Virus record (IMG/VR): IMGVR_UViG_2693429662_000017
DNA from: a virus
Lineage: Duplodnaviria > Heunggongvirae > Uroviricota > Caudoviricetes
Reading direction: 5' to 3' (one strand)
DNA: 12,220 nt
The notes beneath the pieces were generated by a model, which saw nothing but the letters and a program-made list of their open reading frames with translations, was not told the DNA's origin and searched no databases. Made by a program: the position numbers and the translations under genes. Of this stretch, positions 1,595-6,835 are shown one piece after another; positions within the stretch are counted from its first letter, which is position 1; each line of letters begins with the position of its first letter.

Positions 1595-1618
1595 TACCCT
1601 TTATACCATGTCCTTATT

Positions 1619-1647
1619 GACCCCGTATATTACGGGGTCGTTTTTGT
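1619..1647 (+). terminator. Intrinsic terminator downstream of yciE
   Basis: Seen: perfect 9-bp stem GACCCCGTA / TACGGGGTC with a 3-nt loop (1619-1639), followed by GTTTTTGTG. It sits between yciE and the convergent ompW remnant, so it may work in both directions. Confidence 0.6.
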
Positions 1648-1653
1648 GCGGAA

Positions 1654-1770
1654 TTAAAAACGATATCCTGCTGAGAACATAAACACCCACGGATCGAGGC
1701 GTACGCTATCGTGTTGCTGTGCACCGCCCAGCTTATAATTGGCGGTGGTATCGATATCCATGTACCACAC
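1654..1770 (-). pseudogene. ompW: ompW 3'-terminal fragment (last ~38 codons), displaced by prophage integration
   Basis: Seen: the - strand frame reads ...VWYMDIDTTANYKLGGAQQHDSVRLDPWVFMFSAGYRF then stop (stop codon 1654-1656), with an in-frame TGA at 1780-1782 cutting it off upstream and no start codon. Established: this matches the C-terminus of E. coli OmpW as recalled, and ompW lies convergent to yciE in K-12. The ORF-track call 1614..1814 is in a different frame and is not this gene. Confidence 0.55.
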
Positions 1771-2080
1771 TGGTAGGTTTCAAAAAACACAATAACCAAT
1801 TGTATTTGAAGCAAAAAACAAGACTTTGAGATGTTTTTTTGTACCTTTTTTTTATGTTTTTAACTGTCTGATTTTATTGAAATCTTTTTTAGTTTTGCAG
1901 AAGGAATTTTTTACTTGATTGTAACTTTTTCGTTTTTTTGGGGCTAATTGACGCGCAATGCTGGGCGGGGAGCGCACAGCCAAAAAAACCGAAATTGACC
2001 GCTAATTACTGCCAATCATCATCGCTCTGATTGAGCGTAAATCATTCAGGTTATTCAGTTCTTCCTTCTGCTCTCGCTGA
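1771..2080. other. AT-rich non-coding region at the prophage end, candidate attR arm
   Basis: Seen: ~300 bp with no credible ORF, multiple T/A tracts and an 8-bp A/T palindrome around 1812-1838 (AAAAAACA...TGTTTTTT). Inference: its position between the truncated ompW end and the phage cargo is where integrase arm and IHF sites would be. The exact core cannot be fixed without the other prophage end. Confidence 0.3.
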
Positions 2081-2082
2081 CG

Positions 2083-2253
2083 TCAATAAATCCCATCATT
2101 GCGATCAACCTCATCCTTAACCATTGATGCGAGCAGTTCTTCCAGTTTCTGCGCTGATAGCTTTACCTGGTGATCTTCAGCATCTTCCCGGGCTATTGTG
2201 GTTCGCGCAGTGGCTGATTTTGCTGACATCACCACAGGGGGCAGACGGACCAT
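2083..2253 (-). CDS. Hypothetical small acidic protein (56 aa from ATG 2253; 48 aa if ATG 2229)
   Basis: Seen: ORF MVRLPPVVMSAKSATARTTIAREDAEDHQVKLSAQKLEELLASMVKDEVDRNDGIY, with GGAGG 10 nt upstream of the ATG at 2253. The ORF track's longer 2364 start would read through the repeat hairpin and is unlikely. No recognisable family; coding status uncertain. Confidence 0.3.
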   Translation of the reverse strand: MVRLPPVVMSAKSATARTTIAREDAEDHQVKLSAQKLEELLASMVKDEVDRNDGIY

Positions 2254-2317
2254 TGAACCATGGCCTCCGGAACAAATAAGGGCAAAAATAACAACCACTA
2301 TCGAAAGCTCACAAACT

Positions 2318-2533
2318 AACCGCAGCACGTTCCTGCATACGACGTGTCTGCGGCATAATCCCAATGATTACTCCCTGACAGGATTTGCAGGCCACTCAAT
2401 ATCAGGTGCAGTTGATGTATCAACACGATTCAACAATACCCGATATTTATTCCATGCCTCCAGCAACGATCTTTCTTCCTCCGTTGCGATTTCCAGATCT
2501 ACAGCATCCTGCAGTGGCGCAATATACTCACTG
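2318..2533. repeat. Direct repeat copy B (~215 bp, ~90% identical to 3368-3583): tfa 3' end plus downstream hairpin
   Basis: Seen: by-eye alignment of 2318-2533 with 3368-3583, including the hairpin CCGCAGCACGT...ACGTG(T)CTGCGG at 2320-2353 and the shared CATAATCCCAATGATTACTCCCTGACAGG block. Similarity is lost on both sides. Confidence 0.65.
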
Positions 2534-2637
2534 AATTCCTGGATGTAGAACTGTGTGGTGACGGTCTTCCAGCCATTCGGCTCCTGCTGTATCGAAGCAT
2601 ACCAGGCTATTTCAATATCGCTATGCTGCGGCAGCAT
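2368..2637 (-). CDS. tfa: Short tail fibre assembly-like protein (89 aa): unique 38-aa N-terminus fused to the conserved Tfa C-terminal ~51 aa
   Basis: Seen: ATG at 2637 with AGGGG 4 nt upstream and an in-frame TAA immediately before it. The C-terminal [51 protein letters not shown] is about 90% identical to the C-terminus of the full tfa at 3417-4001. Could be a functional short chaperone or a recombination remnant. Confidence 0.5.
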
Positions 2638-2645
2638 TTAACCCC

Positions 2646-2674
2646 TTGTAATTCATCGCCATAATTGATTTAAT
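2646..2674 (+). promoter_or_regulatory. Candidate sigma70 promoter for the methyltransferase gene
   Basis: Seen: TTGTAA (2646-2651), 17-bp spacer, TTTAAT (2669-2674), about 20 bp upstream of the ORF. Inference only; the -35 overlaps the RBS of the divergent tfa-like ORF. Confidence 0.25.
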
Positions 2675-2693
2675 TCACAAACAAAACTATAAC

Positions 2694-3362
2694 ATGGTGA
2701 AATCAATGAAAAAAAACACAGATGATGGGGCTAAAATTTACACACCACTTACCCTAAAGCTTTATGACTGGTGGGTTTTGGGAGTATCAAATCGGCTTGC
2801 ATGGGGATGTCCTACAAAGGAACACCTTCTTCCACACTTTCTGGAACATGTAGGTAACAACCATCTGGATATTGGTGTTGGAACTGGGTTTTACCTTACT
2901 CACGTACCTGAGAGTAGTCTGATATCTTTAATGGATTTGAACAAAGCTAGCCTGAACGCGGCATCTACAAGGGCTGGGGAATCAAAAATTAAACATAAAA
3001 TTAGCCATGATGTTTTTGAACCTTATCCCGCGGCGTTACATGGTCAATTTGATTCCATTTCCATGTTTTACCTTCTTCACTGCCTGCCTGGAAATATATC
3101 TACAAAAAGCTGTGTAATACGCAATGCGGCGCAGGCCTTAACTGACGATGGAACTCTATACGGAGCCACAATTCTTGGCGATGGAGTTGTGCACAATAGC
3201 TTCGGTCAAAAACTGATGCGCATTTACAATCAGAAAGGCATCTTTTCAAACACAAAAGATTCCGAAGAAGGCTTAACACATATACTCTCAGAGCATTTCG
3301 AGAATGTTAAAACCAAGGTTCAAGGTACTGTAGTAATGTTTTCCGCTTCAGGGAAAAAATAG
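2694..3362 (+). CDS. Class I SAM-dependent methyltransferase, substrate unknown (222 aa; alternative start ATG 2706 gives 218 aa)
   Basis: Seen: Rossmann motif I LDIGVGTG at residues 58-65 (nt 2865-2888), acidic beta2 end LISLMDLN (D81), and FDSISMFYLLHCLPG as a motif II/III-like strand. The ORF looks AT-rich by eye compared with the flanking tail genes and is convergent with tfa. GGTGA sits 5 nt upstream of the second ATG at 2706. No (D/N)PP(Y/F) or PC motif, so not an obvious DNA methyltransferase. Confidence 0.7.
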   Translation: MVKSMKKNTDDGAKIYTPLTLKLYDWWVLGVSNRLAWGCPTKEHLLPHFLEHVGNNHLDIGVGTGFYLTHVPESSLISLMDLNKASLNAASTRAGESKIKHKISHDVFEPYPAALHGQFDSISMFYLLHCLPGNISTKSCVIRNAAQALTDDGTLYGATILGDGVVHNSFGQKLMRIYNQKGIFSNTKDSEEGLTHILSEHFENVKTKVQGTVVMFSASGKK

Positions 3363-3367
3363 CATCC

Positions 3368-3583
3368 AACCGCAGCACGTTCTTGCTTAAGACGTGCTGC
3401 GGCATAATCCCAATGATTACTCCCTGACAGGGTTCGTAGGCCACTCAATATCAGGTGCAGTTGATGTATCAACACGGTTCAGCAACACCCGATACTTTTT
3501 CCAGGCTTCCAGCAATGAGGTTTCTTCCTCCGTTGCAATTTCCAGATCTGCAGCATCCTGAAGCGGCGCAATATGCTCACTGG
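3368..3583. repeat. Direct repeat copy A (~215 bp): 3' end of the full-length tfa plus downstream hairpin
   Basis: Seen: aligns with 2318-2533 at about 90% identity. Together the two copies bracket an ~0.85 kb segment carrying the methyltransferase gene. Confidence 0.65.
3370..3402 (-). terminator. Hairpin between the convergent methyltransferase and tfa genes (probable tfa terminator, possibly bidirectional)
   Basis: Seen: perfect 11-bp stem CCGCAGCACGT / ACGTGCTGCGG with an 11-nt loop. On the - strand it is followed 8 nt later by TATTTTTT; on the + strand it lies 8 nt after the methyltransferase stop with no U-run. Confidence 0.45.
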
Positions 3584-4001
3584 CTACCTGCATCAGGTTG
3601 TTTTTTGTTTCTTCCGCCTCCCGGATCCGGAACATTTTTTCTGCTTCCGTATCCTTCACCCAGGCTGTGCCGTTCCACTTCTGAAACTCCCCTTCCGGCG
3701 ATAACCAGGTAACATTTTCCGGTAACGGACCGAGTTCAGAAATAAATAACTCGTCCCCTGACGCTACGTCATAAACCGTTTTACCCCGATGGTCTTCAAC
3801 GAGATGCCACGATGCCTCATCACTGTTGAAAACAGCCACAAAGCCAGCAGGAATATCTGGTGGTGCAATATCGGTACTGTTTGCTGGCAGACCTGTATGA
3901 GGCGGAATATATGCGTCACCTTCACCAATAAATTCATTAGTTCCGGCCAGCAGATTATAAATTTTTATGGTCCGTGCTTGTTCACTCATTCTGAATGCCA
4001 T
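3417..4001 (-). CDS. tfa: Tail fibre assembly protein Tfa (194 aa)
   Basis: Seen: ATG at 4001 overlaps the stf stop by 1 nt (TAATG), implying translational coupling. Established: the product ([24 protein letters not shown]...) is near-identical to lambda Tfa as recalled. Confidence 0.9.
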
Positions 4002-6835
4002 TATGCAAGCCTCACAATATAGTTAAATGCGATGTTTTTGACGGTGTTTTCCGCGTTACCAGCAGCGTTAACGGTGATGGTGTGTCCATGTGAACCAATC
4101 GCAACGGAGTGCGTATGCGCACCAATACCTACAGTATGTGCATGTGCGCCAGAACTTGCTGCAGTACCAGACAGCGAGTGGGTATGAGCACCTGCTGACT
4201 GTGTCTGAATACGTTGATAATACGATCTACGGGAAGAAGTCTCCGGGCTTACTTGATACTGTGAATCCTGGACATAAGTGAACCCACCGCCATCATAAAA
4301 TGCTAACGCAGAACCGCCGCCTCCTGGCCAACGAATACCATTACCATGAGTATGATCACCGGCAGCCCCCGTAGAGCCACTCAGACTGTGCGTATGCGCC
4401 CCGGTGTTATTCGTGGATTTGGTTCCGTAATCAAACGACGATGTGTTTTTCGTCCCCAAATCCGTACTGGATGCGCTGGCGCTGTGGGTGTGCGATTTAA
4501 TGCCGTCCTGTTCCTGAGACAATACGGCACGACCACTGGCGGGTTTGCCCTTAATCGTCCAGCCACGCATATCAGGGATCACGCCTGACGGATAAGCGGC
4601 TGCAAGTTTCGGGTATGCAGATTTGTCAAAAGTCTGCCCCTGCATCAGGGCATAACCAGACGGAACGGTATCTGATGGCCACGGGATTGGTGCGCCGACT
4701 GGGTAGCTTTCTGGTGGAAGATTTTTCGAGGTATAAACTTCTGCCCAGTCTTCCTCAAAACCATAACCGTCTCTTGAAGAACGGTAGAACAGACCACCAT
4801 TTCTGTAATGCGCCTTCATCTGCAAGGTCCGGCAACTTCCGACTCCGGTATAGAAGTTAACCAGAATATAGCTGTCGCCAGAGCGGGTGACATTGTAAGC
4901 GCCTGATTCGGCATTCCAGGGAACGGCTCCATCCGAATCCGCATAAGCCCCCGTCGAACGTCGGGCAAATGCACCAATATTTTCCGGCGTGAGGTTAATA
5001 TCCGCCGAGCCATCAAACTTAACACCGTTAATTTTTGGGTCTGCCGCAAGTTTCGTCGCGGTATCGGCGTTCCCCTTCAGTGCCCCGGTGATCCCATCAG
5101 TAACAGACAACGGACCTGAAATAGTCCCTCCAGTTGTTGGCAGCGCTCCAATATCTGATGGTGTAGGTTTCTGATGTGAGCTATACATCGTATAAACAAC
5201 ACCATCGGTAACGCTGGAAGGCTTACTCGCTGAATATGTTAGCGAGGTATAAATAGAAACTGACGCATTTGTAGTACAATCCCAATGGATATTTACACTC
5301 GTCGCATAATTGCCAATCTCAACGTAAATATCATATATATCGCCGGATGTGTTGATCCAGGCGAAATTCGTTAATCCGACGGCTGTACGCTTCCACAAAG
5401 CTCCGGTAATCCCTTTGGGGTTTCCATTGCCTGCTCGTAGAACCAGTTCAGATATACCTGCCTGTTGAGGTGCCCCCACGTTAAATCCAGCGCCACCAAT
5501 CAATGCGATGTAAACGATGGAACTCGCTTGTGGCATGGTAACCGTTGCCAGTTTGAACCACCCTGCCCCGCCAGAGAAAGAGATCGTTACTGAATTTAAA
5601 GTGCCAATATCTTTCGGTGTTAATGTTATATCCGCAGTCAGTGCTTTCCCGTTAACTTTTCGGTTAGATGGTACCCTGCCATTCGCATTGTCATTCGCTG
5701 CTTTAACTGCCTTCGGTGTCGCGGCAAGCGTTTCAGATGTGCTGTTGGTTGCACTGCTGAGCTGTACTATCCCCTTTTTCGTCGTGCTCGCATCCTCAAG
5801 CGCCACGGCGGATGCAATATCCTCTGCCCGTTTTGCCGCTGTCTCGGCGCGCGTTGCCGCGGATTCCGCCGTACTTTTGCTCTGAGCTGCCGCCGTCGCA
5901 CTGCCAGCTGCCTCTGTCGCCTTCGTGGATGCCGTCGTGGCGCTGCCCTTTGCTGCTGACGCCTGTCTGGTCGCCTCATCTTTTGAAGCAGACGCAGATG
6001 ATGCCGATGACGCCGCCGAACTGGCGGACGATGCGGCAGCCGTTTTTGAGGATTCTGCGCTGGTTTCCGAGGCTTTCGCGTTCGTTTCGGATGTCTTCGC
6101 TGCCTCTTTTGAGGCCGCCGCATCCCGTGCTGAAGTGGCTGCTTCTGACGCTTTCGTGGTCGCGGTGGATGCAGAAGTGGCTGCTGATTGTTGTGACGCA
6201 GCCGCATTCGTTTCTGACGTTTTCGCCGCACCGGCACTGGTAGCCACCGCGCTTTTTGAGGACTCTGCAGCGGCAGCACTTTTTGATGCTTCAGTAGCCT
6301 TTGTTGATGCCGTTCCTGCGCTGGAAGACGCTGACTGAGCCGACGTCGCGGCCTGCCCGGCTGATGTGCTGGCTGCACGTGCTGAGCCTGCAGCATCAGT
6401 CGCATGGGTTGCCGCCTCACTGGCAGATATGCTGGCATCGCTGGCTGACTTCTTCGCGGCTGCCGTGTTCTGTGCAACCGCGGAGGCGTTACGTGACACC
6501 TCTTCTACCATCTGCTCAAAGCGGCGCAGTGCCTCCGGTCGGACATCATCCTCCGTCATGGCACCGAGAAAATCATTCAGCGTACCTGGTCTGGAACCTT
6601 CATAGACGATAATGGTCCCGGCATGTGAAGGCGGAAAACCTTCAACCAGCAGGGTGACGCTGTACTGACCATGCTCAACATCCATGCTGTAACGTCCGGC
6701 TTCATCCGGATTTTCAGAGGCCACCGTGTTCACCACCACCGTGCTGCTGGTTCGTCTGGCCTTCAGCACAATGGTGCAGTTCTGTACTGGTTTTCCTGTG
6801 CCATCTTTAAGCACGCCAGAAATTTTTACTGTCAT
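4001..6835 (-). CDS. stf: Side tail fibre protein Stf (944 aa), mosaic
   Basis: Seen: GGTGGA RBS 5 nt upstream of the ATG at 6835; Ala/Ser/Thr-rich low-complexity region at residues ~120-345; C-terminal His-x-His repeats ([24 protein letters not shown]). Established: N-terminal ~120 aa and C-terminal ~230 aa match lambda Stf as recalled, and His-x-His repeats are a fibre-tip feature. Inference: the central ~330 aa differ from lambda. Confidence 0.9.

Follow-up and report, generated by a model that had tools for sequence, protein, structure and literature searches.

Invertible tail-fibre cassettes are known from phage Mu (the G segment with Gin), phage P1 (the C segment with Cin) and e14 (Pin). 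The locus described here lies in a 12,220-nt stretch of Caudoviricetes DNA (IMG/VR record IMGVR_UViG_2693429662_000017; hereafter the window) and resembles these cassettes in having two nearby tfa-related sequences downstream of a fibre gene. Unlike in the cassettes, the two copies are direct repeats, no invertase was seen, and the second copy is partial and continues into a different gene. It has relatives in two protein families.

One of these is the tail fibre assembly protein (Tfa) of the lambda type (Caudo_TAP, PF02413; Mu gpU, PDB 5YVQ). Tfa is modular, with a variable N-terminal beta-sandwich that binds the fibre and a conserved C-terminal helical domain that trimerises (PMC9608196, summarising the Mu Tfa structure). 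The C-terminal ∼53 residues of the 89-aa ORF analysed here are 80–90% identical to lambda-type Tfa, and a putative terminator hairpin is common to tfa and to this ORF; by contrast, Caudo_TAP profile positions 1–74 are absent, and there is no adjacent or co-transcribed fibre gene. The other relative is the phrog_3893 family from enterobacterial siphophages (HK225 gp29, Erwinia phage 59 gp23), which matches the ORF in residues 1–36, in the position of the ribosome-binding site (RBS) and in the start codon. Residues 37–79 of that family (helix H3 and the beta-hairpin) are missing from the ORF, which also has no LexA-box-like sites and neither dinI nor a umuD-like gene as neighbour.

The closest described locus is in the DLP12 prophage of Escherichia coli K-12 MG1655, where tfaD and tfaX likewise flank ybcY, a methyltransferase pseudogene of opposite orientation. 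The first 38 residues of K-12 TfaX (b0563, formerly ylcE; UniProt TFAX_ECOLI) are identical to those of the window ORF, and K-12 tfaX DNA (NC_000913) is near-identical to the window from the spacer to codon 61, with the same RBS and junction. K-12 tfaX differs in that codon 62 is changed from TGG to TGA, leaving 61 aa, in that its ybcY is a pseudogene, and in its 3' region. In the window, by contrast, all 89 codons are uninterrupted, the adjoining ybcY is intact and the prophage is located at ompW; the order of tfa, opposite-strand ybcY methyltransferase and short ORF is shared. The ORF also matches phrog_2341, a family of unknown function, from end to end (positions 1–88 of 88, hmmscan E = 4.1e-61); no difference from the family was detected, and the ORF is a typical member. 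The entity is thus already known as K-12 tfaX and as phrog_2341, and it is widespread: the exact 89-aa protein occurs on at least 1000 public contigs, usually under the name "tail fiber assembly protein", and 3423 of 5426 complete E. coli genomes contain at least 80% of window positions 2250–3450. What the present analysis adds is the chimeric origin of tfaX and the identity of the donor family.

The window is the end part of a lambdoid prophage inserted in ompW and adjoining yciG-yciF-yciE. Its minus-strand genes follow in the order I, J, lom, stf (4001–6835) and tfa (3417–4001), after which come a plus-strand methyltransferase gene (2694–3362), the 89-aa ORF, a DUF4376 pseudogene fragment and the ompW remnant. 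E. coli ATCC 11775 carries a copy that is 99.8% identical over 2250–3450 and is annotated in exactly this layout. The features used below are as follows.

2002–2271, minus strand: DUF4376 pseudogene remnant downstream of the chimera (PGAP annotation of the 99.8%-identical ATCC 11775 copy, coordinates converted)
2318–2544, no strand: direct-repeat copy 2, with the tfa 3' end and a hairpin; partner of 3368–3593 (repeat families D1 and D2)
2320–2353, no strand: degraded copy of the tfa 3' hairpin, downstream of the chimera (repeat D2; folding of 2296–2367)
2368–2637, minus strand: 89-codon chimeric ORF, the intact allele of K-12 tfaX/ylcE, phrog_2341 (ORF list, K-12 comparison, PHROG)
2368–2529, minus strand: Tfa-derived part of the ORF, codons 37–89 and the stop, equivalent to residues 142–194 of the full Tfa (BLASTP, Caudo_TAP, Mu Tfa 5YVQ_B, DNA alignments)
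2530–2637, minus strand: donor-derived part of the ORF, codons 1–36, the 5' end of a phrog_3893 gene (profile, amino acid and DNA identity)
2638–2693, no strand: divergent 56-bp spacer between chimera and methyltransferase, holding the AGGGG RBS and a TAA (sequence)
2694–3362, plus strand: class I SAM-dependent methyltransferase, an intact ybcY homologue, cargo between the two tfa copies (Pfam Methyltransf_12/23/25/11; PGAP)
3370–3402, no strand: strong hairpin between the convergent tfa and methyltransferase genes (folding of the 72-nt stretch 3345–3416)
3417–4001, minus strand: full-length Tfa, 194 aa, including direct-repeat copy 1 at 3368–3593 (Caudo_TAP; tail fiber assembly protein annotation)
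4001–6835, minus strand: side tail fibre gene stf, 944 aa, client of the full-length Tfa (ORF list; PGAP)

PGAP annotates the methyltransferase gene in the identical copy, and its K-12 counterpart in the same position is the ybcY pseudogene. The 944-aa stf product is named by PGAP "prophage tail fiber N-terminal domain-containing protein".

The short ORF had been noticed in a preliminary description made from the sequence, which reported an ATG, an AGGGG RBS and an in-frame stop directly upstream at 2368–2637; the sequence agrees on all these points. The start context on the minus strand is AAGGGGTTAAATG, with AGGGG at 2646–2642, a 4-nt spacer and the ATG at 2637–2635. The in-frame TAA (2640–2638) abuts the ATG, and a TGA lies four codons further upstream. 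This is not a chance ORF, since the same start, RBS and junction recur in all 78 evaluable related loci and in K-12.

The 3' part of the ORF comes from tfa. In a BLASTP comparison with the full-length Tfa, residues 27–89 align with 51 identities in 63 positions, and real identity is confined to residue ∼36 onward. The Caudo_TAP profile matches residues 31–86 of the ORF with 88.3 bits (gathering cutoff 22.1), covering only profile positions 75–130 of 131, while the full-length Tfa matches positions 1–130 (E = 1.3e-44). Codons 37–89 correspond to the conserved C-terminal helical domain of Tfa. Residues 1–36 belong to phrog_3893, and with no match to Caudo_TAP positions 1–74 the N-terminal fibre-binding domain is absent. 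The preliminary description had placed 38 unrelated residues before the conserved Tfa end. The join to Tfa is confirmed, with the unrelated part shortened to 36 residues, as Ser36-Glu37 already align with the SEH of Tfa.

Those 36 residues had been taken for a novel N-terminus, which they are not. A tblastn search of phage genomes with the 38 N-terminal residues returned identical copies and, additionally, weaker matches at 35–75% identity to the starts of short ORFs in Ayreon, Klebsiella phage Kp4882-3, HK225, HK140, mEp390 and Erwinia phage 59. HK225 gp29, Erwinia phage 59 gp23 and the Klebsiella ORF are intact genes of 79–99 aa, and the first two match phrog_3893 with E = 2e-42 and E = 1e-29, respectively. 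The 38-residue peptide alone matches the same family, with residues 3–37 on positions 2–36 of 79 (E = 5.7e-8). The closest intact donors (P0128, P0106 and P0098) are 73–78% identical to residues 1–36 at the amino acid level, in a colinear and ungapped alignment. In a large protein collection the family was found in Klebsiella, Raoultella, Enterobacter, Citrobacter, Salmonella, Erwinia and Pantoea. Pfam yielded nothing above threshold for the donor proteins, and NCBIfam had no family either for them or for the chimera.

The DNA alignments fix the breakpoint. ORF nucleotides 1–87 are ∼92% identical to the donor genes in three loci (L087–L089), nucleotides 97–108 (CAGGAATTCAGT) are still donor-like (donor: CAGGAACTGAGY), and tfa sequence starts at nucleotide 109 (GAGTATATTGCGCC...). 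The breakpoint therefore lies at ORF nucleotides 108/109, window ∼2530/2529, and the switch occurs at a Ser codon common to both parents, within a short patch of microhomology (CAGG...AGT). Thus the second tfa copy is not a simple truncation, as the preliminary description had rightly held, but 36 codons of a phrog_3893 gene fused to the Tfa C-terminus. The statement that the ORF has its own RBS needs to be qualified: the RBS and the ATG are real, but they were inherited from the donor gene, as each of the donor genes has its Shine-Dalgarno sequence at this position.

Natively, the donor genes come directly after tail-fibre or tail-spike genes; dinI is divergent to them, and a Peptidase_S24/UmuD-like gene lies downstream. 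The order dinI (minus), donor (plus), Peptidase_S24 (plus) is seen in five loci (L088, L089, L087, L006 and L004), and LexA-box-like sequences, e.g., TACTGTATGGATGTACAGTA, precede the donor genes. The ∼79-aa family carries the NCBI name "DNA polymerase V". This name is unsupported: what we see is a small winged-helix-like protein co-located with dinI and a UmuD-like peptidase. The dinI gene, the UmuD-like peptidase and the LexA-box-like operator, present at the donor loci, are all missing near the 89-aa ORF in the window. A search of the window for LexA boxes gave six one-mismatch matches (3.9 expected), none of them near the ORF, and therefore the SOS control seen at donor genes has not been carried over.

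Of the 56-nt spacer that separates the chimera from the methyltransferase gene, 54 nt are identical in a copy from a P2-type prophage, and its last ∼30 nt recur upstream of a donor-type gene in phage Ayreon. There, the same spacer is joined to a donor-type gene and ybcY is mostly deleted. Since donor homology in Ayreon extends to nucleotide ∼133, past the fusion point, this phage is a candidate for the pre-fusion state.

The two tfa-derived copies form a direct repeat (2318–2544 and 3368–3593) with about 89–90% identity and a 1-nt indel. The repeat extends ∼50 nt beyond the stop codon and includes a strong hairpin, the one located where tfa and the methyltransferase gene converge. The lambda tfa 3' end and downstream region match window positions 2314–2533, and the repeat boundary coincides with the limit of homology to the lambda tfa 3' region. 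Folding of the 72-nt stretch 3345–3416 gave −28.6 kcal/mol (z = −4.6) on the minus strand and −25.4 kcal/mol (z = −4.2) on the plus strand, and the hairpin at 3370–3402 is probably a bidirectional terminator. The equivalent stretch downstream of the chimera (72 nt, 2296–2367), whose stem has a 1-nt bulge, gave −24.2 kcal/mol (z = −2.1). The repeat analysis and inspection of the ORF list bear out what the earlier description said about direct repeats and the absence of an invertase gene. No invertase was found among the window ORFs by inspection of the list (four of them were scanned against Pfam), and no relevant inverted repeat was found in 1600–4300. An invertible-cassette reading was considered and rejected, as the tfa repeats are direct and the ORF list contains no invertase.

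Whether the fusion sits in a lambda-like prophage, a P2-like prophage or a stand-alone remnant, divergent ybcY always accompanies it. In particular, the methyltransferase–chimera pair is found in P2-like myovirus prophages at smpB/ssrA, where it follows a P2-type fibre gene and tfa, and also as a stand-alone remnant beside yciG. Two remnants (L090 and L094) carry the short ORF without any fibre gene.

To characterize variation, we used 80 related IMG/VR loci that are the best matches to the intact query, a non-random sample that favours intact copies; 78 of them were evaluable. Relatives without the conserved start would have spoken for a disrupted full-length tfa, and none were seen: the ATG and RBS are invariant in 78/78 loci. 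The body of the ORF is less stable. It is disrupted in 16 of the 78 loci by five kinds of lesion, namely premature stops at three different codons (12, 29 and 62), a frameshift and a truncation, so that about 80% of the sampled copies are intact; the codon 62 stop occurs on at least two sequence backgrounds. As controls in the same loci, the methyltransferase gene, which is 2.5 times longer, is disrupted in 3/75 and the full tfa in 1/29. Of 61 observed variant types, 4 (6.6%) create a stop; under neutrality 5.4% would be expected to, which is the share of stop-creating changes among all possible single substitutions. The per-site ratio of non-synonymous to synonymous polymorphism is 0.60 for the N-terminal part, 0.31 for the methyltransferase and 0.14–0.19 for the full tfa, and a pairwise comparison of the N-terminal part with the diverged P2-type copy yields 0.54 (two synonymous and five non-synonymous changes). 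The ratios of 0.54–0.60 lean to relaxed constraint, and with 2–4 synonymous changes neutrality and weak constraint are inseparable.

The 3' end varies as well. In very common alleles the sequence is broken after codon 76 and continues into unrelated DNA; one such allele, for which the contig collection lists 2441 blocks, ends at an IS66 element. The ends of the short copies and the DNA downstream of them differ from locus to locus (…ANPVRE, …TSPAE, …EEPDTM, …TGPIIE, …SQP), a variation that is independent of the full tfa upstream, whose usual ending is …TNPVRE. Intact copies may also be diverged: two of them (P0204 and P0214) differ by 17–19% at the protein level, and diverged intact copies have non-conservative changes at conserved Tfa positions (P41L, R66W, and DIEWP to DIVWP).

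Expression data come from K-12. Genomic SELEX has placed an RpoD-holoenzyme site in the ybcY/tfaX spacer in vitro, overlapped by H-NS (PMC3946193). The tfaX hexamers printed there (ATGGCA-15-TTAAAT) do not support translation from this ATG, because, in our reading of the sequence, the −10 element would cover it. Our own scan of the spacer for sigma-70 consensus detected no promoter that would serve the ORF, and the total number of matches was like that in shuffled sequence. The ylcE transcript was up 2.55-fold in mixed biofilm, and a ylcE deletion mutant was like the wild type in growth and biofilm (PMC3646849). The literature found under tfaX/ylcE holds transcription and promoter data and no protein-level evidence; under b0563 only unrelated items were found.

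As to the possible product, the sole solved relative, Mu gpU (PDB 5YVQ), aligns with exactly the Tfa region that the short ORF keeps. The chimera is thus predicted to have the trimerisation helices and no fibre-binding domain. The donor family was modelled with AlphaFold2 (pLDDT 91.5, pTM 0.81) as a winged-helix-like fold with the topology H1-b1-H2-H3-b2-b3, of which the chimera retains H1, b1 and most of H2, the cut falling within H2. A Foldseek search of the PDB with the donor model found nothing significant (best E = 0.15); the top entries were mostly winged-helix DNA-binding domains, and the winged-helix reading is a hint from topology. The model of the chimera has a pLDDT of 70 (47–70 over five models) and contains a single helix, residues 29–47, that spans the junction. 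A folded product is conceivable on this model; neither parental function is plausibly retained.

The reading we favour, with a probability of about 75%, is that the 89-aa ORF is a decaying fusion relic at a recombination joint, carried along with methyltransferase cargo, and not a dedicated fibre chaperone. The ancestral arrangement would have been a tfa followed by a pair of ybcY and donor gene. Illegitimate recombination within the microhomology would then have joined donor codon 36 to tfa codon ∼141. This would have left tfa-derived homology on either side of ybcY, through which homologous recombination could splice the cassette onto varied prophage right arms; such splicing would explain the locus-to-locus differences in the end of the short copy and in the DNA downstream of it. 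The ORF itself would be drifting, and may persist through its youth and its linkage to ybcY. No locus was found in which ybcY adjoins a full-length donor gene, and the order of events is inferred. The conserved start is explained by inheritance from the donor and is therefore no proof of selection on the fusion. Of the options offered in the preliminary description, a relic of an alternative fibre module comes closest, in that the ORF does look like a relic of module exchange.

The other two options were a minimal fibre chaperone and a decoy interacting with Stf. For a self-sufficient chaperone of Stf or of an alternative fibre one could cite the Caudo_TAP match above threshold and the name given in public records, but the proposal conflicts with the architecture of Tfa, as the whole N-terminal domain that binds the fibre (profile positions 1–74) is absent (PMC9608196 for its role). 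Moreover, a complete Tfa directly follows stf. The short ORF is neither directly downstream of its fibre gene nor co-oriented with it in one unit, being separated from stf by the full tfa (3417–4001) and the opposite-strand methyltransferase gene, and copies are found in the fibre-less remnants. We regard this proposal as hardly tenable; any product is unlikely to chaperone Stf, because it would have no Tfa fibre-binding domain and only part of the donor fold. A functional small protein of another kind is unlikely but has more to be said for it. Consisting of the Tfa trimerisation domain only, it would form mixed oligomers with Tfa and modulate or poison fibre assembly, e.g., as a prophage-encoded decoy directed at co-resident or superinfecting phages. 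It would fit the retention of the conserved C-terminal helical domain with its proposed role in trimerisation, the good RBS and ATG in all copies, most of which are intact, the continuous helix predicted across the junction, transcription of the K-12 allele, and the cargo position of the ORF beside a cargo gene. Yet the start signals are accounted for by inheritance from the donor gene, the ORF is broken in five ways among 78 loci with stop-creating variants near the neutral rate, and diverged copies have non-conservative changes at conserved Tfa positions. Very common alleles lack the C-terminal DIEWP end, and the K-12 allele stops at codon 62. In addition, PADLOC assigned neither the chimera nor the methyltransferase, a donor protein or the 93-aa ORF downstream to a defence system, and the K-12 deletion had no growth or biofilm phenotype. 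The disruptions, the variable and truncated 3' ends, the K-12 truncation and the lack of a deletion phenotype likewise argue against a decoy for Stf. Still more speculative is a specific form of this idea, to which we give little credence: the intact fusion would be an expressed cargo protein, created in a manner like exon shuffling on the start signals of an SOS-cassette gene, that co-assembles with the Tfa of lambdoid or P2-like phages and acts as a dominant-negative "anti-fibre" factor.

Two further explanations dispense with a functional protein. The DNA itself could matter, the duplicated tfa 3' block being kept as homology arms for transfer or pop-out of the cassette. The occurrence of the cassette in lambda-like, P2-like and remnant contexts, the variable tails and downstream DNA, as expected from crossovers inside the block, and the end of the repeat at the limit of homology to the lambda tfa region are all consistent with this. 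However, it is mostly the mechanism proposed above with selection added, the repeat may be a by-product, and truncated alleles that miss much of the block persist at high frequency; we consider it slightly less probable than a functional small protein. Finally, the ORF could be a plain 5'-truncated tfa pseudogene, its ATG and upstream codons a chance read-through into junk. This is in effect the view of PGAP, which restricts its annotation to the 59 tfa-like codons and calls them a pseudogene "missing N-terminus". It is very improbable, as protein and DNA comparisons alike show homology of the 36 codons, with their RBS and ATG, to a genuine gene family, which makes them a fragment of a second gene.

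The main consequence is for annotation: names based on Tfa, be it as an assembly protein or as a pseudogene, miss that the ORF consists of two gene fragments, and functional inference from the name is unsafe. The tfaX region is also a clean and datable example of how the DNA behind phage tail-fibre genes evolves. Bracketed by tfa homology, the ybcY cargo has been spliced into lambda-like and P2-like prophages in well over half of the complete E. coli genomes, and the cassette has left stacked relics behind it: the 5' end of a donor gene, the 3' end of tfa and a DUF4376 fragment.

Genes of the donor family, phrog_3893 (~79 aa), were located at several of the compared loci (L-numbers), and a related region was found in phage Ayreon (L005):

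L088:5055-5297, plus strand, donor gene (phrog_3893 member)
L089:5031-5273, plus strand, donor gene (phrog_3893 member)
L006:2504-2743, plus strand, donor gene (phrog_3893 member)
L004:2501-2743, plus strand, donor gene (phrog_3893 member)
L003:2501-2800, plus strand, donor gene (phrog_3893 member)
L005:2239-2633, tfa/ybcY/donor-type region of Ayreon

The window retains only a fragment of the donor gene (2530-2637). The gene order around donor genes is always the same, comprising a tail fibre gene, dinI (minus strand), LexA-box-like sites, the phrog_3893 gene and a gene for a UmuD-like S24 peptidase (both plus strand). NCBI names the family "DNA polymerase V", which looks like a misnomer. We found no Pfam domain in the family; a high-confidence structure prediction for its product gives a small winged-helix-like protein.

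In Ayreon, the hairpin still follows the 3' end of tfa. After it come the final ~37 nt of ybcY, the same spacer as at the chimera, and then a donor-type gene. A stop interrupts this gene at codon 33, but homology to the donor continues beyond the position of the chimera junction. This arrangement is a candidate for the pre-fusion state, with ybcY deleted.

The chimera and its neighbours lie among the following features of the window:

~1654-1779, minus strand, 3' remnant of ompW
~2002-2271, minus strand, DUF4376 pseudogene fragment, as annotated by PGAP in a copy that shares 99.8% identity over window 2250-3450
2083-2364, minus strand, ORF overlapping the DUF4376 fragment
2694-3362, plus strand, intact class I SAM-dependent methyltransferase gene, homologue of the K-12 pseudogene ybcY
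3307-3444, minus strand, 45-aa "hypothetical protein" WP_001309429.1 (RefSeq annotation)
4001-6835, minus strand, side tail fibre gene stf

The prophage interrupts ompW just downstream of yciG-yciF-yciE (277-1594). The DUF4376 fragment, which directly follows the chimera, is a third gene relic in the stack at the prophage end; in some alleles (P0034), chimera codons 1-16 are joined straight to its frame.

Proteins P0236 and P0237 are further tfa fusions. A 155-aa fusion protein consists of the N-terminus of Nu1, the terminase small subunit, and the C-terminal two-thirds of Tfa; a possible origin is a terminase-to-tfa deletion resembling that of the K-12 DLP12 nohD-aaaD-tfaD region (L002:2835-4098).

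The WP_001309429.1 ORF runs through the terminator hairpin and into the ends of the genes on either side, the methyltransferase gene and tfa, and is therefore probably an annotation artefact. Residues ~110-370 of Stf form a long low-complexity stretch rich in Ala, Ser and Thr, which yields long spurious ORFs in other frames, e.g. 5767-6477 and 5925-6338.

A PADLOC search with the methyltransferase gave no match. Lambda-like and P2-like prophages carry its gene, as do stand-alone remnants, and disruption of the gene is rare (3 of 75 loci). Well over half of the complete E. coli genomes contain both this gene and the chimera.
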